Source of the DNA: an uncultured delta proteobacterium
GTDB lineage: Bacteria > Myxococcota > Myxococcia > Myxococcales > Myxococcaceae
Length of the DNA: 64,000 bases
Assembly: GCA_963771175.1 (NCBI GenBank)
Contig: CAVYSY010000026.1
Coordinates: 1-64,000, forward strand
Reading direction: 5' to 3'
In this document: piece after piece, positions 1-15,501 of the stretch
Layout of the letters: each line of letters opens with the position of its first letter
Numbering within the stretch: position 1 is the first letter of the stretch
Program-made: the position numbers and the translations under genes
Notes under the pieces: generated by a model
The model's database searches: none
What the model saw: only the letters and a program-made list of their open reading frames with translations
What the model was told of the DNA's origin: nothing

Positions 1-102
1 CGTGAGTTTCGTCACATCCGCCCACGGCCCGCTCCTTCAAAGGCGAAACGCGCGGCGACTCGGATTCCCGAGGAACCGCCACACCCCCACGAGGAGAACC
101 CC

Positions 103-261
103 ATGAAGGAGAAGCGTACCCGTCTGCGGATGACCGACCTCCAGGAGACCCCGAAGCGCCTGGGAGAGCGCGAGCTCGATGAGGTGGAGCTGAAGATCGT
201 CTCTGGCGGGCTGGCCAGCCAGGGAGGGACTTGTTCCGACTGTGGTGACTGCGATCAGTAG
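103..261 (+). CDS. RiPP precursor peptide, 52 aa, double-glycine leader (putative ATP-grasp target)
   Basis: Manual translation: MKEKRTRLRMTDLQETPKRLGERELDEVELKIVSGG-LASQGGTCSDCGDCDQ*. RBS GAGGAG at 91-96, ELxxxELxxVSGG leader motif, directly upstream of an ATP-grasp gene. Not in the ORF track. Confidence 0.85.
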   Translation: MKEKRTRLRMTDLQETPKRLGERELDEVELKIVSGGLASQGGTCSDCGDCDQ

Positions 262-386
262 TCCCAGGCCCATGGTCTGCTCCCCGGCCGCCAGGAGAGG
301 GGCCGGGAGAGCAGACACCCTCGCGACGTGGAGGTCTCCGCTCGCACGCGAAGACCCGCGCCGCTCCCCCAGTCCCCAGACAAACC

Positions 387-1415
387 ATGATCCTCATCCT
401 GACCGAGCCCGATGACGTGCATGCGAACGCCGTCGAGGCCAGGCTGTGCCACCGAGGCGCCAGCGTGTGCCGCTTCGATTGGAGTGAATTCCCCAGCACC
501 GCGTCGCTGTCGATCGACTCCCTCGGCGGTCGCAAGCGCGTCCGACTGAAGCGAGGCGGCGAGGAGCTCGACCTGAGTGAGTGCACCTCGGGTTGGCTGC
601 GCCGCCCGCGCAAACCCCGGCTCTCCGAGCGGATTGCCGATCCGCTGCTGCGAAGCTACGCGGAGGAGGAGTGCCTCCAGACCCTCCAGGACACCTGGAA
701 CGCGCTGGACATCCCCTGGCTGCCCGGGCCGATCCACGCCATCCGGCTCGCCGACAACAAGCAACTCCAGCTCCAGCTCGCCACCGCGCTCGGATTCGAG
801 ATTCCGCCCACGCTCATCACCAATGATCCGGACGAGTTCCTGGAGTTCTACCGCCAGCACGGGGGACAGCTCATCGACAAGTTCCCCACCGTCACCATGG
901 CCGCCAGCCAGCGCACGGGCCGGGAGCTGATGCGCTACACGCAGGCCGTCACCACCCGCGACGTGGGGTACGCGCGGCGCCTTCGCCATGCTCCCATGCT
1001 GTTCCAGGCCCAGGTGCCCAAACGCTTCGAGCTGCGCATCACCGTGGTCGGTCAGGAGGTGCTCGCCGCGGAGATCCACTCCCAGGCGACCCGGCGCACC
1101 CAGCTCGACTGGCGCCACTATGACTGGGGCCATACCCCGTACCGCGTGCATCACCTGCCGGACGCCATCCGCCGCGCCTGCCTGGAGCTGGTCGCGCGGC
1201 TGGGGCTGCGGTTCGGAGCCATCGACATGATCGTCACCCCCGACGACCGCTACGTCTTCCTGGAGATCAACCCCAACGGCCAGTGGCTGTGGATCGAGGA
1301 GGAGACCGGCCTGCCGATCGCCGAGGCGATCTGCACCACGCTCCTGGACCCCACTGGCACTTCCCTCGCTCCGCGCGCACGGCCCACGCTCGCGCCCCTG
1401 GAGGCCTGTCCATGA
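387..1415 (+). CDS. ATP-grasp ribosomal peptide maturase (MvdC/MvdD-like graspetide ligase)
   Basis: MILILTEPDDVHA N-terminus, WLRRP, ADNKQLQL, PPTLITND, FQAQVPKRFELRITVVG, DWR, FGAIDMI, FLEINPNGQWLWIE motifs. Confidence 0.92.
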   Translation: MILILTEPDDVHANAVEARLCHRGASVCRFDWSEFPSTASLSIDSLGGRKRVRLKRGGEELDLSECTSGWLRRPRKPRLSERIADPLLRSYAEEECLQTLQDTWNALDIPWLPGPIHAIRLADNKQLQLQLATALGFEIPPTLITNDPDEFLEFYRQHGGQLIDKFPTVTMAASQRTGRELMRYTQAVTTRDVGYARRLRHAPMLFQAQVPKRFELRITVVGQEVLAAEIHSQATRRTQLDWRHYDWGHTPYRVHHLPDAIRRACLELVARLGLRFGAIDMIVTPDDRYVFLEINPNGQWLWIEEETGLPIAEAICTTLLDPTGTSLAPRARPTLAPLEACP

Positions 1416-2473
1416 TGAATGAGTCCCTTCTCGCGGCGGTTCGTGACGCGCTCGCATCGCTGGTGAGGTGGCGAGAGGAGCGCCTGCCCCCCGAACAGGC
1501 CCAGGAGTCGTTCCAGTCCCTGAAGGCGCGCCACCCGGACCATTGGATGAACATGATCTGGGAGCAGGAGACCTACGGGAACACGGTCCACTACGACATC
1601 CTCCTCGCCAACGAGGGGGGCACCTGGTCCCTGAGCCACTGCGCGGACGAGGAGGTCCCCTGGCCGGCCAGAGGGCTCCAGCGCATCAACGAGTCGCTGG
1701 TGCTGCGCGTCAACGATGACCCGGTGCGCATCAACCAGGTCATCACCAGCCTGGACCACGCGTGGTCCACCCTGCATATCGGCCGGCACCTCATCAACAT
1801 GAGCCTGATCGAACAGGCGCTCCGTGACAGCGACCTGGAGGTGACGGACGAGGAGCTCGCCGCGGCGCTGGTCGACTTCCGCAAGCGGCGGCGGCTGTTC
1901 TCCGTGGAGCAGGTCGAGCGCTGGATGGTCGAGCACGGCACCACCCAGGTGCAGCTCGAGAAGAACCTGCGCGAGGACGTGGCGCGCGAGAAGCTGCGGC
2001 GGCGGGTGGCCGCGGGCCGCGAGGAGGCATGGTTCGAGCGCCACCGCGCCGACTTCGAGCGCATCCAGGTCGCGCGGCTGTACGTCCAGGACCGGGCCGA
2101 GGCCCTGCGGTTGTACGAGCGGCTCCGTGACTCGCCCGAGCAGTTCCTGGAAGTCGCGCAGGTGAGCTTCCTGGAGCGGGGAGGCACGGGCGACCTGTTC
2201 GCCACGTTGCGGCGCGGAGAGCTGGAGCCCGAGCAGGCCGCGCTCCTGTTCTCGACCGAGCCGGGACAGGTGGCCGAGCCCATTCCCAGCGGAGCAGGCT
2301 ACGAGCTGGTGCGGGTGCTGCGCTTCCACCCCGCACGGCTCGACGAGGCCACCCGCGAGAAGGTCCGGGAGCGCCTGTTCGAGGAGTGGCTCGCCGAGGG
2401 ACGGCGCCGCGCCCGCGTGGAGTGGTTCTGGGGTGCCGCCGAGGCCGAGGAGCTGCCCGCCGTGTCCCCGTGA
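1412..2473 (+). CDS. Putative peptide maturation protein with SurA/PpiC-like C-terminal region (TIGR04500-like)
   Basis: ATGA overlap with the ATP-grasp stop; HYDILL..SLS..PWP.RGLQR N-terminal block; SurA-like helical part; PpiC-like GQVAEPI..GYELVRV; ends VEWFWG. Confidence 0.75.
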   Translation: MMNESLLAAVRDALASLVRWREERLPPEQAQESFQSLKARHPDHWMNMIWEQETYGNTVHYDILLANEGGTWSLSHCADEEVPWPARGLQRINESLVLRVNDDPVRINQVITSLDHAWSTLHIGRHLINMSLIEQALRDSDLEVTDEELAAALVDFRKRRRLFSVEQVERWMVEHGTTQVQLEKNLREDVAREKLRRRVAAGREEAWFERHRADFERIQVARLYVQDRAEALRLYERLRDSPEQFLEVAQVSFLERGGTGDLFATLRRGELEPEQAALLFSTEPGQVAEPIPSGAGYELVRVLRFHPARLDEATREKVRERLFEEWLAEGRRRARVEWFWGAAEAEELPAVSP

Positions 2474-2664
2474 ATCACTTCCGTGAAGCGCTGCTAGCCT
2501 CTCCAGCGGGAGAGGAGTGGTATGCACGGTGGCGCCGTGAATCTGATCCTCCTCCAAGACTCCGATTTCCTCCCCGACGGCACCGTCCAGATGACCGGCC
2601 GCCGGGCCCAGCACGCCCGTGAGGTGCTCCGCGCCGAGCCCGGCGAGACACTCCGCGTGGGCCG
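2448..2664 (+). repeat. 217 bp direct repeat, copy 1 (rsmE upstream region and 5' end)
   Basis: Matches 7211-7427 at offset 4763 with about 4 mismatches by eye. Confidence 0.95.
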
Positions 2665-2671
2665 ACCATGA
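2537..2671 (+). pseudogene. Truncated 5' duplicate of rsmE (44 codons)
   Basis: GTG-NLILLQDSDFLPDGTVQMTGRRAQHAREVLRAEPGETLRVGRP-TGA, near-identical to the RsmE N-terminus at 7300. Confidence 0.85.
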
Positions 2672-3312
2672 ACAATCAATACAAAGATTTCAAATGGCCC
2701 GGGCCAACAAAATTCGAAAACAAAGATTTCGTTGAATTTGATTTTTCCAATTCAAATTTTGACGGCGTGTATTTTGTGGATTGCAGCTTCCACGGGTGCA
2801 TTTTCCACAAAGGCACACCAGGAAACCTCGCATTTTTTGGGTGTAATTTTAAAAAATGCAACTTCAAGAACTTTGACTTCCGAAGAATCAGTGTTGGAGC
2901 CAACGGCGGGACCTACGATGAATGTGTTTTTTCAAAATGCAACTTCACTGGCCGACAATTTGAATACCCACATTTCGCTTCCTGCACATTCGACCAATGC
3001 AAGCTAAAGAATGTGAATTTCAATGATGCATCCTTTTGTGCAACAAAATTCATTGGGAAAATTGAAGACACCACCTTCAACGGCCTGTACCACAAAAAAT
3101 CCACCGGGTTCAAAATATTAGACTCCGTGGACTTCTCGGATGCAGTTTTCGGCGATTTTGTAACCTTTGAAGACTGCGACCTCTCCACATGCATCCCTCC
3201 TAAAGGGAACGCTTTCAGCGAATTGCTGTACGCCATTTATGCCGGCAATTCAAAAATACTCAGCACAGGAAACAAAGACCGGATCGTTTTAACTACACCA
3301 CCTGGCAACTGA
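2668..3312 (+). CDS. Pentapeptide-repeat protein, AT-rich, probably foreign
   Basis: Repeated FxxCxF pentads (FVDCSFHGCIF, FKKCNFKNFDF, FDQCKLKNVNF); composition much more AT-rich than the flanks. Confidence 0.85.
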   Translation: MNNQYKDFKWPGPTKFENKDFVEFDFSNSNFDGVYFVDCSFHGCIFHKGTPGNLAFFGCNFKKCNFKNFDFRRISVGANGGTYDECVFSKCNFTGRQFEYPHFASCTFDQCKLKNVNFNDASFCATKFIGKIEDTTFNGLYHKKSTGFKILDSVDFSDAVFGDFVTFEDCDLSTCIPPKGNAFSELLYAIYAGNSKILSTGNKDRIVLTTPPGN

Positions 3313-3379
3313 ACTGCTTGGCTAAAGCCATCAAGCCCAGAAAAACGCTTGTGAGACGGCATCGCGATGATCTGACCTG

Positions 3380-3560
3380 TTGAAGCGCATCCCCTGGAAA
3401 GAAAACGCCGTGTTGAGCTTTCGACTCAGCGACGATCTGTTCACCTTGGCGCAAATGCGCACCAACTCCCTGATGGAGTTTTTCGATGTCTTTCGGAGCA
3501 GCCCGGATTGGGCCGGCACCGACCTGAACAAGGCCCCCATCATTTTCTGCGCCTTCGCTG
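3380..3560 (+). pseudogene. 5' fragment of an immunity-protein-like gene, truncated at a junction with GC-rich DNA
   Basis: KRIPWKENAVLSFRLSDDLFTLAQM resembles Imm26-type N-termini; composition changes abruptly near 3560. Confidence 0.35.
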
Positions 3561-3745
3561 GTGACGGTGCAGGAGACGGTGGACCTGCCCACGCTCCAGC
3601 TCCACGCGTCCGGTGTGACGGCGGACGCGCACCCGCTGTCACGGGCCCAGGCGAAGCTCGTCACCCTGCGCCCGGTTGCTACCAGCCGACGGGCCCCGTA
3701 GGGCGAACCACCTGACCTCCAGCGTAGTCCTCGGGTCCAAAGGCC

Positions 3746-3841
3746 CGCTGATCACGATGGCCGATCCCGGTGATCACGATGCGCCGATCTCGCTGATCAC
3801 GATGCTCCGATCCTGGTGATCACGATGGGCCGCCGCGCGCA
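3746..3841. mobile_element. Orphan IS21-family-like terminal end with iterated subterminal repeats
   Basis: TGATCACGATG at 3749, 3771, 3794, 3817 (22-23 bp period), ending in ...CGCGCGCA (TG/CA terminus). Confidence 0.6.
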
Positions 3842-3920
3842 GGTAGGACTTCGGAGCGCAGGATGACGCCGCAGCCGAGTCCGTGGTAGCTGGTGCCCGG
3901 GCAAGTGCCCAAGTCGTATG

Positions 3921-3996
3921 TCGGTTGGATGCCATGTTTCAGACAATGAAGAGGAATATCGGTTGGATGCCATGTTCCAGACAATGAAGAGGAATA
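3921..3996 (+). repeat. 38 bp tandem duplication covering the start of the lipoprotein gene
   Basis: TCGGTTGGATGCCATGTT(T/C)CAGACAATGAAGAGGAATA at 3921-3958 and 3959-3996. Confidence 0.9.
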
Positions 3997-4571
3997 GAGG
4001 CAGCATCGGGGTGGCCCTGGTCACGCTTTCGATGCTTGGGACCTGTGGTTGTGGTGACGAGCTGCCGGACTCCGAGCTCCCAGGGAATCCCCCGGACTCC
4101 GAGCTCCCAGTCAACCTTCAAGGCGTCTGGTTGGATCGCTGGAGCACCTCCATGGGATACCAGCTCGCCACGGAAATGTACGACTTCGACACGGGCGTGT
4201 GGTTCAAGGGGTATTACGACCCTTGGGAAATGGCGCCCTATCAGGGATTCGGCATCTCCTTCGGTCCCAATGGAGCCTTCACGTGGGTGATGGGCTCGAA
4301 TAATGCGGACGCGGGCTGCAAGTCCTACTCCATCGACTTCATGAAGGGCTCCGCGACCGTCCAGGACGCGAACACCATCCGATTTCGCGAAACCCAGAGA
4401 TGGCAGCGCTACCACAGCACCTGCGACCCGAGCTTGAACTACGACCGGGACGCCTCGGGCGGAGACTTCACCATGGACTATGTGCTGGGCGCGACGCAGG
4501 ACACGGGCCTTCCCACCTTGCGCCTCTACACTCCCTCGGATGGCACGGGCTTCGACTACTTCAAGGGGTAG
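3984..4571 (+). CDS. Hypothetical exported protein/lipoprotein
   Basis: MKRNRGSIGVALVTLSMLGTCGCG signal with Cys; duplicated PDSELP; aromatic beta-rich body. Confidence 0.65.
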   Translation: MKRNRGSIGVALVTLSMLGTCGCGDELPDSELPGNPPDSELPVNLQGVWLDRWSTSMGYQLATEMYDFDTGVWFKGYYDPWEMAPYQGFGISFGPNGAFTWVMGSNNADAGCKSYSIDFMKGSATVQDANTIRFRETQRWQRYHSTCDPSLNYDRDASGGDFTMDYVLGATQDTGLPTLRLYTPSDGTGFDYFKG

Positions 4572-4587
4572 GGCCACTCCTCGAGGC

Positions 4588-4773
4588 TCACCGCCCCGCG
4601 GAGCCAATCCTGGCCAGCGTGGGCACGCTGGGCACCATGGAGCCCCGCTCGACCCGGCCGTAGACGCCGGACTTCAGGCGCACCTTCTTGGCCACCTCCG
4701 CCTGCGTGAGGCCCAGCCGCAGGCGAGCAGCTCGGGCCGCGTCTCCCAGCGCGTGTCTCAGCTTCTCGTCCAT
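4588..4773 (-). pseudogene. XRE-family HTH regulator, probably C-terminally truncated
   Basis: LGDAARAARLRLGLTQAEVA...YGRVERG.MVPSVPTL is a typical myxobacterial XRE HTH; stops early. Confidence 0.7.
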
Positions 4774-4856
4774 GGTGTGCGTCTACCGCAATAGGAAGGG
4801 GACCGCGATGATCAACATCGACACGTGACGGGGACCTACTGATGGAGGCTGCGCCC

Positions 4857-5094
4857 TGCGTATTCCGGCGATGTGGAACACTCGTTCCGGACGAAGTGGA
4901 ACGCCCGTTCCGGAGCAAGCGGAACAGTCGGAGCGTCAGCGACGCTGGCCGGGGTTCACTTCGCCCCCTTCTTGGACCGGGTCAAATTCCTTTCCGGGTC
5001 GCGCATCGAGTCGCCCGTGAGCTTGAGCCGATGGGCGTTGTGCACCAGCCGGTCGAGGATGGCGTCAGCAAGGGTGGGCTCGCCAATCACCGCG
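4857..5094 (-). mobile_element. istB: IS21-family remnant: istB 3' end plus terminal repeat region
   Basis: [30 protein letters not shown] (IstB C-terminus, 4956-5094); end TGCGTATTCCGGCGATGTGGAACA... with iterated GGAAC/GTTCCGG repeats from 4857. Confidence 0.85.
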
Positions 5095-5385
5095 TTCTGG
5101 CCCGTCCACGAGGAGGCGTTGCCCGCCATCCCCGAGAAGTACCAGGGCATCATGCAAGCGGCGGAGTACCACCTGCGCGAAGGGGCGACGCCAGCGCTCA
5201 TCGACCGGGTCAATCGCATGCTGCGGGTCAATTACGCGCAGCGCAGGCGAGGCACGGTGACCCGGGGCTGGCCGCGGCGCGGTGGCGTCGAGGCCTGGCG
5301 AGCCGAGGTGCTCGCTTCCCGCCGGGGCAATCCCTTTCAGGCGGATGCCCGGGACTGGGACTGGTTCGTGTCCTTCCGGGAGTGA
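5095..5385 (+). pseudogene. 3' remnant of a hypothetical gene cut by the IS21 fragment
   Basis: Protein-like frame [27 protein letters not shown]...DWDWFVSFRE* starting at the IS junction. Confidence 0.4.
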
Positions 5386-5396
5386 GAAAGGAGCGG

Positions 5397-6848
5397 CTAT
5401 CCCTCGTGAGCGGGCTGGCGCGGACGGCGGCGCAACACGACCGGCACGAGCAGGGACAGGAAGATGGCGGCGAGGCCGGGGCTGGTACTGCAGCCGCCCT
5501 TGGGCTCCTCATTCACGGGGCTCGGCCCGCCGCCCGTGCCCGCATCGGAGCCTCCGTCCGTTCCGCCCCCGGTGCCACCGTCAGTTCCCGTGCCCGCATC
5601 CGCTGGCGTCCCGCCGTCCGTGGGCGTGCCGGTGCCAGTGCCGCAGTCGCCCAGCGAATGCTCCAGCGCGCCGAGCGTGTAGGCCCCCGATGACGGACGT
5701 GGACGGGCGCAATGGTCGTCCGTCACCGCGGAGCGCGCGGCGGCTCCGCCGATGAGTGAGGAGATGTTGCCCTCGACGCGCAGGTCTCCGGCCAGCGGCG
5801 CCACGTACCAGGAATCCCAGGTGGTCGAGGCCACGTTCATCAGGTTCGTGCCGGCGGTGAAGGTGCCGCTGTCACGGGTGCGGATGACGGAGGACAACAC
5901 GTTGCCGTGCGCCTCGCCGGTGGTGGAGGCGAAGCGGAAGTCCACGCCGGTGGTCGCGATGAGGGTGTTGAACAGCACCTTCGTGTTGGCGGCCTTGTTC
6001 AGGTAGATGCCCACGTCCGAGCAGTTGATGATGACGTTGTTGCGCAGGATTCCATCCGAGTGCTCGGGATCGCAGGGAACGTTCGCGTCGAAGGCCGGCG
6101 CGCAGTAGGCGTTCCCCGTGCCTCCACCTCCAAAGGACAGGCCGATGCGCGTGTTTCCAGCGGGGGCATCCAGGGTGCAGATGACGCGATTGCGCTCGAA
6201 GACGCCGCGCTTGCCACCGCTCTTCATGAACGCGCCGTAGGAGATGCCGTTGTTGGCCTTCGAGAAGTCGTGGATGGAGTTGCCGCGGACGACCCAATCG
6301 TCACCGGTGTCGATGTTGAGCTTGGTGACGGGCGTCGTCGTGTTCCGGACGCGCGTGTCGTAGACCTCATTGTTCTCGATGAGCCCCCGGTGAGGGATTT
6401 CGTAGACGCCGCTGGCGTTCTGCGCCGCATTCACCTTGAGCTGGGCGTTGAAGTCGCGGACGCGGCTGTTGCGCAGGACGAAGTTCTCCGCGTGGCCCGT
6501 GACATGGAACGCGTGCTCGCAATTCACGTCCTGGGCGCAGACCCCCTCGATGGTCAGGCCGTCGAAGACCCAGTACCGGCCTGACACCTTGAAGCCCTCG
6601 GTCGCGTTGAACCGGATGAGGGCCGCGTGCCGGTTCGCGGCCCTGACGATGATGGGCTGGGACGCGGTGCCCTCCGCCGCGCAGCTCAGGTTCGCGTTGA
6701 CGGCGTACGTGCCGTCCGCGAGGACGACCTCGTCGCCGGCCTGGGCAGAGGCGAGCGCTGACTGCAACTGGGTGACGGTGGAGACGTTCTTCACTGCGGC
6801 GAAGCTGGTGCTGGACAGCAGGAGCAGCGCCAGTGACGGGATTCGCAT
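5397..6848 (-). CDS. Secreted right-handed beta-helix (chondroitinase B/polysaccharide lyase-like) protein with MYXO-CTERM-like anchor
   Basis: Signal peptide; AQAGDEVVLADGTY; parallel beta-helix repeats; G/T/D-rich linker; GGCS-hydrophobic-RRR C-terminus. Confidence 0.8.
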   Translation of the reverse strand: MRIPSLALLLLSSTSFAAVKNVSTVTQLQSALASAQAGDEVVLADGTYAVNANLSCAAEGTASQPIIVRAANRHAALIRFNATEGFKVSGRYWVFDGLTIEGVCAQDVNCEHAFHVTGHAENFVLRNSRVRDFNAQLKVNAAQNASGVYEIPHRGLIENNEVYDTRVRNTTTPVTKLNIDTGDDWVVRGNSIHDFSKANNGISYGAFMKSGGKRGVFERNRVICTLDAPAGNTRIGLSFGGGGTGNAYCAPAFDANVPCDPEHSDGILRNNVIINCSDVGIYLNKAANTKVLFNTLIATTGVDFRFASTTGEAHGNVLSSVIRTRDSGTFTAGTNLMNVASTTWDSWYVAPLAGDLRVEGNISSLIGGAAARSAVTDDHCARPRPSSGAYTLGALEHSLGDCGTGTGTPTDGGTPADAGTGTDGGTGGGTDGGSDAGTGGGPSPVNEEPKGGCSTSPGLAAIFLSLLVPVVLRRRPRQPAHEG

Positions 6849-7210
6849 GGTGGCTTTTCCTCCGAAGCGGGTTGGGAGGTGCCAGTCTGACTCGGATCCG
6901 TCGCGCGAGGGCCACTCGCTTCCGAGCCTCAGGTCTCGCAGAGGCGCTCGACGTTGGCGCCGGGTCCCTTGCCGCTCAGGTGCTCGAGGTAGGCCTGGGC
7001 GACGCGGGCGCGGAAGCGCTGGGCATAGCCATCACAGAAGTTCTTGTAGGGAGTGCCGCTGGCGCCCTCGGCGAGCACCGCGCGGCCTCCGCCACACGAG
7101 GTCTCTGCACCGGCCGGGCTCACAACTCGGGCGGCCTCCATCAGCGGCCCTCCTCGGCCCCTCGGCTCCTGCCCTCCTCCCTCAACAGTCCTTCAATCCG
7201 TCCTATGCTC

Positions 7211-7427
7211 AGGAGCTGCCCGCCGTGTCCCCGTGAATCACTTCCGTGAAGCGCGGGTAGCCTCTCCAGCGGGAGAGGAGTGGTATGCACGGTGGCGCCG
7301 TGAATCTGCTCCTCCTCCAAGACTCCGATTTCCTCCCCGACGGCACCGTCCAGATGACCGGCCGCCGGGCCCAGCACGCCCGTGAGGTGCTCCGCGCCGA
7401 GCCCGGGGAGACACTCCGCGTGGGCCG
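7211..7427 (+). repeat. 217 bp direct repeat, copy 2 (continues into intact rsmE)
   Basis: Matches 2448-2664. Confidence 0.95.
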
Positions 7428-8049
7428 GCTCGGTGGGCTCGTGGGCACCGGCGAGGTGCTGGAGAACACCCCCGGCCTGCTCCGCCTGCGCGTCTCCCTC
7501 ACCGATCCGCCCCCTCCCCGCGCCGGGGTGGACCTGCTGCTCGCCATTCCCCGCCCCAAGGCCCTCAAGCGCGTGCTGCCCGCCGTGGCCCAGCTCGGCG
7601 TGGACCGCGTGGTGCTCGTCAACGCCGCCCGGGTGGAGAAGAGCTACTTCGACTCCAAGGTGCTCGCCCCCGACTTCGTCGAGGAGCTGCTCCTCCAGGG
7701 CCTCGAGCAGGCCCGAGACACCCGACTGCCCGAGGTGCTCGTCCGCGAGCGCTTCCGCCCCTTCGTCGAGGACGAGCTGGACGCCGTCTTCGGCACCGAG
7801 GCCGTCCGGCTCCTCCCCCACCCTCCCGCGCAGCAGCCGCTCACCCAGGTGGGTGCGCGGACCGCCCCGCGCGTGGTGCTGGCCATCGGGCCCGACGGGG
7901 GCTGGGTGCCCTTCGAGGCGGAATTGTTGGAGGCCCACGGCTTCCGGCCCTTCTCGCTGGGCCCCCGCATCCTCCGGGTGGAGACGGCGGTGCCCGTCCT
8001 CCTGGGACAATTGGAACTCCTCCGGGCGGACACCGCGCGCACGACGTAG
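7300..8049 (+). CDS. rsmE: 16S rRNA m3U1498 methyltransferase RsmE
   Basis: HAREVLR, LLLAIPRPK, GLEQARDT, SPOUT motifs IGPDGGW and SLGPRILRVETA; GTG start assumed. Confidence 0.9.
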   Translation: MNLLLLQDSDFLPDGTVQMTGRRAQHAREVLRAEPGETLRVGRLGGLVGTGEVLENTPGLLRLRVSLTDPPPPRAGVDLLLAIPRPKALKRVLPAVAQLGVDRVVLVNAARVEKSYFDSKVLAPDFVEELLLQGLEQARDTRLPEVLVRERFRPFVEDELDAVFGTEAVRLLPHPPAQQPLTQVGARTAPRVVLAIGPDGGWVPFEAELLEAHGFRPFSLGPRILRVETAVPVLLGQLELLRADTARTT

Positions 8050-14698: not shown

Positions 14699-14956
14699 TC
14701 AGCGAGAGCCGAGCTTCTTCCATTGCTCGGGCGAATAGGTCTTGAGGGCGAGCGCGTGCAGCTCGCCGGTCTTCAGCCAGTCCTGGAGCGGCGCGTACAC
14801 CAGCTGGTGCTGCTCCACCATGGACTTCCCCGCGAAGGAGGGGCTCACCACGCGCGCCTCGAAGTGGTCTCCGGTGCCGGTGGTGTCGTTCACGTCCACT
14901 TCCGAGCCGGGCAGCGCGCCGAGAATCCTCTGGCGGATGGCATTCGGGTCAAGCAT
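14699..14956 (-). CDS. BolA family protein
   Basis: GDHFEARVVSPSFAGKSMVEQHQLVY..L..GELHALAL. Confidence 0.9.
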   Translation of the reverse strand: MLDPNAIRQRILGALPGSEVDVNDTTGTGDHFEARVVSPSFAGKSMVEQHQLVYAPLQDWLKTGELHALALKTYSPEQWKKLGSR

Positions 14957-15501
14957 CAGTTCAGTCCCTTTCCCTTCATGAGCATGGCGGGATCCACCCC
15001 CATGCTCTTCAAGGTGCTGTCCCATAGCAGACCCGGGTCCCCTTCGAGCACGGGACGAGCGGACGCCTCGACATACAGCCAGGAGCCCGAGGCGAGCTCG
15101 CTCTCGAGCTGCCCGGCGCCCCAGCCGGCGTAGCCCAGGCAGAAGCGCAGGTGCCGCGAGGGATCCATCAGCAGCGGGCCCAACGTGTCCAGGGTGAGGC
15201 TGAGGTAGAGACCGGGCACCACCTCGTGCTTCTCCGTCACACGCTCGTCGTCGTGGAGGACGAAGCCGCGATGGGGCTCCACGGGGCCGCCCATGAAGAC
15301 GGGCTGGCTCACCCGCTCGGGGGAGATGCCAATGGACTGGTTCTTCGCCAACTCGCCCAACGTCAACGAAGCGCCCCGGTTGATGATCAACCCCATGGAG
15401 CCGTTCTCGCCATGCTCGAGCATGAGGATGACCGAGCGCCGGAAGCTCGATTCCCCCAACTGGGGCATGGCCACTAAAAAGCCGGGAGCAAGTGTCTGCA
15501 C
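14956..15501 (-). CDS. YqgE/AlgH family protein
   Basis: FLVAMPQL...FRRSVI, GSMGLIIN, MGGPVE, LGYAGWGAGQLESE. Confidence 0.9.
   Translation of the reverse strand: MQTLAPGFLVAMPQLGESSFRRSVILMLEHGENGSMGLIINRGASLTLGELAKNQSIGISPERVSQPVFMGGPVEPHRGFVLHDDERVTEKHEVVPGLYLSLTLDTLGPLLMDPSRHLRFCLGYAGWGAGQLESELASGSWLYVEASARPVLEGDPGLLWDSTLKSMGVDPAMLMKGKGLN

Follow-up and report, generated by a model that had tools for sequence, protein, structure and literature searches.

The gene cassette analysed here lies at the start of contig CAVYSY010000026.1 (C26) of an uncultured member of the Myxococcaceae, and its closest described relatives are the graspetides of group 21, which count among the ribosomally synthesized, post-translationally modified peptides (RiPPs). 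Group 21 was first numbered by Ramesh et al. in 2021, as cited in PMC13097080 and PMC9576775, and its architecture has been defined by Carter, Ramesh, Saad, Mubarik & Mitchell (ACS Chem Biol 2026; PMC13097080) as a precursor, a TIGR04187-type ligase, a TIGR04500 protein and a peptidase-containing ATP-binding cassette transporter (PCAT, TIGR03796). According to these authors, the TIGR04500 protein strictly co-occurs with the ligase, and the PCAT co-occurs frequently without this being a strict rule; TIGR04500 had also been listed among graspetide-locus-associated proteins by Makarova et al. in 2022 (PMC8939145). One member of the group, rosaritide of Micromonospora rosaria, has been characterised together with its proteins MirA, MirB, MirC and MirD, the last being the TIGR03796 PCAT of the cluster. 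MirA was reported to lose 54 Da solely when MirB and MirC were both present, both MirC domains were needed, and MirB and MirC co-purified and were active in vitro; the product carries the lactones S8-D22, S9-D26 and T11-D24, with both Pro residues in trans (PMC13097080). The stretch of DNA examined here, hereafter the window, comprises the first 64 kb (64,000 nucleotides) of C26 in a draft genome of 9.8 Mb (58 contigs, 82% complete).

The plus strand of the window opens with a compact and apparently intact cassette that we assign with high confidence to graspetide group 21, based on the TIGR04500 score of the partner protein, the PF21068 match of the ligase, a tree of 15 ligases and the labels given in the supplementary table of PMC13097080. 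Its features, each followed by its basis, are:

91–96, plus strand: Shine-Dalgarno-like GAGGAG, 6 nt ahead of the precursor ATG; read directly.
103–261, plus strand: precursor gene, 52 aa; open reading frame (ORF), conservation beside the ligase, codon-position bias.
275–316, plus strand: GC-rich hairpin directly 3' of the precursor stop; folding, presence in relatives.
387–1415, plus strand: graspetide synthetase of the ATP-grasp type, 342 aa, with MvdD-type pre-ATP-grasp domain; profile matches, structures.
1412–2473, plus strand: TIGR04500 partner, 353 aa; TIGR04500 and Pfam matches, SurA alignment, structural model.
2444–2664, plus strand: junction between the cassette end and copy one of a 221-bp repeat, cut at 2664; repeat comparison.

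A graspetide-type RiPP cassette with a double-glycine precursor had been proposed in the original prediction, which was made by reading the sequence, and the protein families, the leader pattern and the conservation in relatives all bear this out. The 52-aa ORF with its ribosome binding site, leader and core is present in the sequence at the coordinates claimed, starting with ATG at 103 and ending with the stop codon at 259-261. It consists of a 36-aa double-glycine leader, with the C-terminal end ...ELDEVELKIVSGG, and the 16-aa core LASQGGTCSDCGDCDQ. The leader fits the double-glycine pattern, with V, L, E and L at positions -4, -7, -8 and -12, respectively, as counted from GG, and is weakly matched by the NCBIfam GG-leader families (E 0.018 and 0.048). 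The prediction had also pointed to the TIGR04497 and TIGR04500 systems. TIGR04500 was recognised in the partner protein (see below). The other family, TIGR04497 (GRASP_targ_2), does comprise graspetide precursors, but the precursor itself showed no match to it at E ≤ 1, and none was found at E ≤ 0.001 in the whole genome or in the control genomes.

Comparison with related loci revealed that the precursor ORF stands 5' of the ligase in 7/8 full-length related genome loci, a set that leaves aside L017, a 23-residue remnant of the partner gene. The remaining locus, L016, is the most distant one (partner 53% identical) and showed no precursor in an ORF pattern search, with no wider search made. 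The ORF was likewise present in all six same-genus loci with a TIGR04500 match over the cut-off, four of which are clusters already among the related genome loci, and in 6/6 metagenome loci with enough upstream DNA (ten loci in total, four of them ending too close to the ligase for the precursor to be scored). Nine related small proteins were found in a large protein collection. Among eight equal-length precursor copies, nucleotide differences at codon positions 1/2/3 amounted to 141/138/356, and folding of region 255-390 gave -60.4 kcal/mol (z -2.7; 0/200 shuffles as good), with the hairpin at the same place in 8/8 loci examined and different in sequence in each. Its retention upstream of the ligase in relatives, the excess of third-position changes and the hairpin led, on sequence grounds, to the conclusion that the small ORF is a genuine conserved gene, beyond chance, and that it evolves under coding constraint. 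The hairpin is likely an attenuator or a transcript-stabilising stem, which would correspond to the usual appearance of a precursor gene separated from its maturase genes. As the window begins at the contig end, just 102 nt are visible upstream of the precursor. In two RNA-library runs of one study, contig pieces 90-98% alike were found over parts of 150-543, 572-843 and 1087-1358; since DNA carry-over is possible and the pieces come from relatives, we draw no conclusion on expression from them.

The original prediction of an MvdC/D-like ATP-grasp enzyme followed by an overlapping SurA/PpiC-like protein held as well, with the ligase above the cut-off of PF21068, the partner above that of TIGR04500 and an ATGA overlap of 4 nt between the ligase stop and the partner ATG. 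The ligase scored 54.5 bits against PF21068, the MvdD pre-ATP-grasp domain (cut-off 27), and its best NCBIfam matches are TIGR04187, TIGR04184 and TIGR04185, the MvdD and MvdC families ranking after TIGR04187. The closest solved chain is MdnB 5ig8 (E 1.1e-55), and further solved relatives include AMdnB 7m4s, MdnC 5ig9, CdnC 7mgv, 9bou and PsnB 7drm. All residues invariant across 63 homologues are present, including E293/N295 and D241-W242-R243. The latter is the counterpart of the DFR motif, which is regarded as critical in the graspetide literature. In the maximum-likelihood tree of 15 ligases, from which L059 was omitted because the pattern gave no full ligase frame there, the window ligase falls inside the clade that holds the loci L009-L012, discussed below.

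The partner protein matched TIGR04500 (PpiC_rel_mature) with 243.4 bits (cut-off 180) over profile positions 3-340 of 340 and exceeded the Pfam cut-offs for Rotamase_2 (E 9e-8) and Rotamase (E 1.1e-6); a SurA_N_3 match stayed slightly under its cut-off (25.0 bits vs 27.2). All residues invariant in 63 partner homologues are present. Behind a conserved N-terminal alpha/beta domain (about residues 1-118) comes a chaperone region resembling SurA/PrsA, which includes a parvulin-like domain. In the AlphaFold2 model (mean predicted local distance difference test score, pLDDT, 86.3), structural comparison returned Cj1289 (3rgc) at the top, then SurA and PrsA chains, and isolated parvulin domains matched with template modelling (TM) scores of 0.5-0.6 for the target. 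The likeness to SurA, PrsA and Cj1289 covers the chaperone region and the parvulin-like fold at partner residues of about 120-340. Unlike these proteins, the partner has an extra, highly conserved N-terminal domain of ~118 residues, and its gene overlaps that of a cytoplasmic ligase, whereas SurA, PrsA and Cj1289 are periplasmic. A further difference concerns both parvulin His residues, which are replaced: in the profile alignment, the His of SurA ...SHIL... is matched by Arg in the family consensus, and that of ...GFHIL... by Glu. Two conserved His residues mark active parvulins. Because both are lost and the window core is free of Pro, we consider the partner unlikely to be a proline isomerase and propose a scaffold or chaperone role.

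Conservation within the partner is highest in the N-terminal ~118 residues, where an alignment of 12 sequences has 39 invariant columns. An idea that this domain may resemble a RiPP recognition element (RRE) comes from PMC13097080, and no RRE/PqqD-like chain appeared in the best 50 structural matches of the domain. Modelled alone, the domain (mean pLDDT 66.8, poor beyond residue 78) gave no clear fold match, and among 48,161 solved chains the best Z was 6.3, within the range common for unrelated folds. The predicted ligase-partner complex (alignments A1 and A2) scored 0.31 against a mark of 0.32, a value that decides nothing about binding in either direction.

With rosaritide the cassette shares the same genes in the same order, namely a double-glycine precursor, an MvdD-like ATP-grasp ligase and a TIGR04500 protein, as well as acceptor Asp residues near the C-terminus that alternate with small polar residues (DxD), donors a few residues upstream in an x-S/T-x-S/T pattern, and Cj1289 (3rgc) as the top structural match of both the window partner and MirC. 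In contrast, the window core comprises 16 residues instead of 27 and contains three Cys and no Pro, whereas rosaritide lacks Cys; the sub-type to which it belongs has two invariant Asp in place of the rosaritide DxDxD triad; and the loop from inner donor to acceptor counts 3 residues versus 12. The parvulin domain is recognisable by Pfam in the window partner, while the paper saw no likeness of MirC to peptidyl-prolyl isomerase domains, and the PCAT gene of the rosaritide cluster has no equivalent beside the window cassette. The partner is 35% identical to the Streptosporangium protein P0199, the sole named actinobacterial member among the matches listed.

Much closer relatives stand in the supplementary table of PMC13097080, which assigns at least six precursors with a QGGTC core to group 21; their sources are Vitiosangium, Archangium (three), Hyalangium and a Burkholderiales metagenome-assembled genome. 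Four of these entries are identical with our loci L009-L012, for L009 with agreement of the precursor coordinates also, so that Archangium and Vitiosangium (Archangiaceae, Myxococcota) are named relatives with the same cluster. The catalogued entries have the same QGGTCxxCxDxDx core and the same ...GERELSEVELKxVAGG-type leader as the window, and the partners of L009-L012 are 78-81% identical to the window partner. The window core differs from them by its Asp at position 10, and it is not, in exact form, among the at least seven rows of the table found with the term QGGTC. In its available text, PMC9576775 describes only a lanthipeptide from Archangium and no product with this core. The view of the original prediction that such systems are largely uncharacterised therefore no longer holds, given that the architecture is that of group 21, rosaritide was characterised in 2026 and orthologues with the same core type have been tabulated.

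A more distant point of comparison is the microviridin system MdnA/MdnB/MdnC of group 1, in which ligase fold and chemistry are the same as for the window ligase and, by alignment, the DWR motif is common to the window ligase and MdnB. Microviridins are marked by a PFFARFL-type leader motif, a TxKxPSD core and two ligases, one for esters and one for amides. The window precursor has neither the PFFARFL-type motif nor the TxKxPSD core, the contrast in the core having been drawn already in the original prediction, and the cassette encodes a single ligase, for which an obligatory partner is expected. Since the core contains no Lys, lactam formation is impossible.

To delineate the residues likely to be cross-linked, 23 distinct cores of the sub-type were compared, numbered after the window core. 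G5, G6, T7, S/T9, D13 and D15 are invariant in all 23, Q4 occurs in 21, and position 3 is Ser/Thr in 21 and Cys in two. Three Asp acceptors had originally been proposed; D13 and D15 are supported by their invariance, but D10 is not conserved. A third acidic residue occurs at position 10, 12 or 16 in 21 cores, being D10 in the window, and the other two cores hold D13 and D15 as sole acidic residues. The family thus appears to offer two fixed acceptors and a floating one together with three conserved hydroxyl donors, which fits two to three lactones.

The cysteines vary as a group. At positions 8 and 14, C,C is found in 19 cores, T,T in three and C,S in one. Among the C,C cores, a third Cys is found at position 11 in 16 and at position 12 in two, and is absent in one, P0005, where C8 and C14 are the only Cys. 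Over the stretch T7 to Q16, the cores of two same-genus species (L030, L032) differ from that of the window only by having Thr at 8, 11 and 14. In the ligase tree, the Thr-type L014 and the Cys-type L015 are sisters (98/99), whereas the Thr-type L030/L032 form a separate clade (100/100); the joint swap at C8 and C14 has therefore occurred independently at least twice. As 3/23 cores lack Cys at 8, 11 and 14, Cys is dispensable for the enzymatic steps. In the table of PMC13097080, the predicted cores of 63 group 21 rows, counted by eye, contain at least two Cys in 21 cases, one in 11 and none in 31, and the Cys often adjoin donor Thr and acceptor Asp. The main text of that paper contains no word beginning with 'cys', although its figure supplement may show a Cys pattern.

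Taken together with the published work, these observations suggest the following route. The precursor leader would be bound by the ATP-grasp ligase in complex with the TIGR04500 partner; that the two associate and that the partner is required has been shown for the homologous MirB/MirC (PMC13097080), and both points are inferred here. The partner would serve as scaffold or chaperone and not as prolyl isomerase, while the ligase would use ATP to convert core Asp side chains into acyl phosphates, which would then be attacked by Thr/Ser hydroxyls to give omega-ester (lactone) rings. This sequence of acyl-phosphate activation and omega-ester closure is the established chemistry of ATP-grasp graspetide enzymes. 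The rings would use D13 and D15 and, in most cores, the floating third acid, with T7, S/T9 and probably S/T3 as donors, so that two to three dehydrations are expected. By analogy with the nested rosaritide lactones S9-D26 and T11-D24, the preferred register is a nested one, T7-D15 and S9-D13, in which C11 would sit at the turn and C8 would face C14. Such a placement would explain the joint change of these two positions, and we tentatively propose, without giving it even chances, that C8 and C14 close a disulfide in this register after export. We predict two or three lactones plus a C8-C14 disulfide. Cleavage behind the first GG would release the leader, and export would fall to one of three TIGR03796-like peptidase-ABC transporters elsewhere in the genome. 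The complete picture of a mature 16-residue hairpin ladder, with lactones T7-D15 and S9-D13 flanking a C8-C14 disulfide and a C11 thiol at the turn, is possible but should be regarded as rather unlikely in all its details. No graspetide with both ester and disulfide cross-links was found in the searched literature.

Several observations weigh against this picture. The ligase score against TIGR04187 (GRASP_SAV_5884), 254.3 bits, lies below the curated cut-off of 350; the ligase probably works like TIGR04187 ligases, yet falls outside the family by the curated threshold. The register is an analogy with rosaritide, and the crossed alternative T7-D13 / S9-D15 or rings from S3 are indistinguishable from it by sequence. 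In most Cys-type cores the Cys count is odd, a feature left unaccounted for by one disulfide, and the C,S core, from Burkholderiales, carries an extra Cys at position 16. The searched literature, which did not extend to the figure supplement of PMC13097080, contained no experiment on the structure, mass or activity of a QGGTC-type peptide. No ABC transporter was found within about 4 kb of the cassette in seven relatives, whose flanks are all different. Finally, two other places in the same genome bear marks of decay in this family. On contig C2, a third copy of the 221-bp repeat (G000:C2:166760-167007; L018 about 14761-15008) is joined to a 100% copy of window positions 1-44 and lacks precursor, ligase and partner, with a Y2/IS91-type transposase fragment (PF04986) following; this site may have arisen by deletion or by duplication, or may reflect strain heterogeneity in the assembly. 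On contig C27 (about 1800-4200, minus strand; L004, L008, L025-L027), a second group-21-like cassette with a different core and a 64-aa double-glycine precursor containing three Cys has its ligase spread over two frames and its TIGR04500 gene broken into three parts, through decay or sequencing error.

An alternative role for the cysteines is metal binding, in which the three Cys and the neighbouring Asp would form a site for Cu(I) or Zn, or a Fe-S-like CxxCxxC site, with the lactones pre-organising the peptide and the thiols kept reduced. The CxxCxxC spacing of the window core with Asp at 10, 13 and 15, the recurrence of the third Cys at 11 in 16/19 C,C cores and at 12 in two more, the odd Cys count of most cores, and the existence of a Zn-tetracysteine RiPP family, the cysimiditides, would all suit such a site. 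It fits poorly, however, with the Cys-free positions 8/11/14 in 3/23 cores from at least two lineages, same-genus species included, that are served by the same ligase and partner, with the P0005 core that has C8 and C14 only, and with the lack of metal transporter or chaperone genes beside the cassette in relatives. We therefore regard metal binding as improbable, though better placed than the readings that follow. The original prediction had left disulfide, thioester and metal binding side by side; the disulfide is compatible with the co-variation of C8 and C14, and the other two appear less likely.

The cassette of this genome might also be a silent or decaying remnant that yields no product. 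Its position at the end of a contig and next to a 4.5-kb insertion that lies between 221-bp repeats, the gene-free copy of the site next to the transposase fragment on C2, the frame changes that split the paralogous cassette on C27, the two same-genus genomes with TIGR04500 remnants only and the lack of an adjacent transporter all point in that direction. Against this stand three intact ORFs, the presence of every residue invariant in 63 ligase and 63 partner homologues, near-identical copies (97-99%) on metagenome DNA contigs and a precursor under coding constraint, and decay of the window cassette is accordingly very improbable.

Slightly weaker still is the possibility that the Cys thiols themselves serve as nucleophiles of the ligase and give side-chain thioesters (thiolactones) with Asp, with Thr/Ser at the same positions giving esters. 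Thiols can capture acyl phosphates in other ATP-grasp enzymes, and Cys and Thr/Ser do replace one another at positions 3 (Cys in 2/23), 8, 11 and 14. T7 and S/T9 are, however, already invariant hydroxyl donors, and two invariant acceptors are too few for extra links. Moreover, T23 and S25 of rosaritide, which lie between the acceptor Asp residues much as C14 does, are not donors (PMC13097080), and no thioester graspetide turned up among the titles and opening lines of abstracts searched, which leaves thioesters with very little weight. Least credible of all is a TIGR04500 protein acting as a true peptidyl-prolyl isomerase that tailors the peptide, since the Rotamase matches and the recovered parvulin fold are set against the loss of both His relative to SurA, the Pro-free window core (Pro occurs in 3/23 cores, at non-conserved places), the trans configuration of both rosaritide Pro and the need for MirC in ligation itself (PMC13097080).

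Returning to the graspetide cassette with ligase-made lactones and a possible C8-C14 disulfide, its export would presumably rely on genes elsewhere. The original prediction had assumed leader removal by a C39 peptidase transporter, but none lies next to the cassette here or in the seven relatives. Beside the window cassette no peptidase or transporter gene was found on the downstream side, the upstream side ending at the contig end. C39 peptidase domains occur in five places of the genome, and three C39 frames on other contigs have TIGR03796 as best match, with scores below the cut-off and frames cut by locus ends. The flanks of the relatives contain M28 or M10 peptidases, TPR, LysR and EamA proteins, a kinase and a sulfotransferase. 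An M28-family peptidase gene is located divergently upstream of the cassette in two Archangium loci (L010 802-2595 and L012 896-2563, both minus strand) and an M10-like metallopeptidase gene upstream of it in L011; these neighbours may be there by chance or may have a link to leader or N-terminal trimming.

TIGR04500 was found over the cut-off in 7/61 genomes, comprising the genome itself, 6/17 others of the genus and 0/43 outside the genus. C-terminal TIGR04500 remnants were detected in two same-genus genomes, L035 (G004:C1:2642268-2642516, profile positions 258-340) and L034 (G013:C367:28279-28884, profile positions 133-340), a sign that the genus may have lost the cassette more than once. 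Downstream of the window cassette, a 221-bp direct repeat (2444-2664 and 7211-7431), made up of the last ~30 nt of the partner gene and the initial 143 nt of a gene like rsmE, encloses a 4.5-kb insert (2665-7210) that is partly of low GC and interrupts the first rsmE copy. On metagenome DNA contigs with a cassette 97-99% identical, position 2664 continues straight into an intact rsmE, and the insert is therefore particular to this genome. It contains a low-GC pentapeptide-repeat gene (2668-3312), an ORF without Pfam match (3918-4571), a gene for a secreted beta-helix/chondroitinase-B-like protein (5397-6848, minus strand) and apparent insertion sequence fragments, the last judged from translations alone. 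Apart from the group-21-like cassettes, the genome also carries a classical microviridin-type cluster on contig C3 (about 94400-96700; L006, L007) whose precursor combines the leader motif PFFARLL with two TxK[YF]PSDSDE cores; two ATP-grasp genes come next, of which the first appears to be divided between two frames.

Overall, an unannotated 52-aa gene, found by reading the raw sequence, proves to be a genuine RiPP precursor, and its cassette adds a member to a group for which dependence on a partner in biosynthesis was reported in 2026, without constituting a new system. With the kind of system known and the sub-type catalogued, fresh interest lies in the short Cys-rich core and the co-variation of C8 and C14. 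The His-less parvulin domain and the Pro-free core provide independent sequence support for the published view of TIGR04500 as a chaperone-like partner. What remains to be learned is the structure of this very short Cys-rich core, and the natural Cys-to-Thr swaps offer a ready substrate pair for testing the combination of lactones and a disulfide in group 21, where about a third of the cores counted (21/63 rows) have Cys pairs adjoining donors and acceptors. If the proposed ladder is correct, the all-Thr versions in sister species would be its disulfide-free counterpart, and the cassette would represent an unstudied ester-plus-disulfide branch of group 21.

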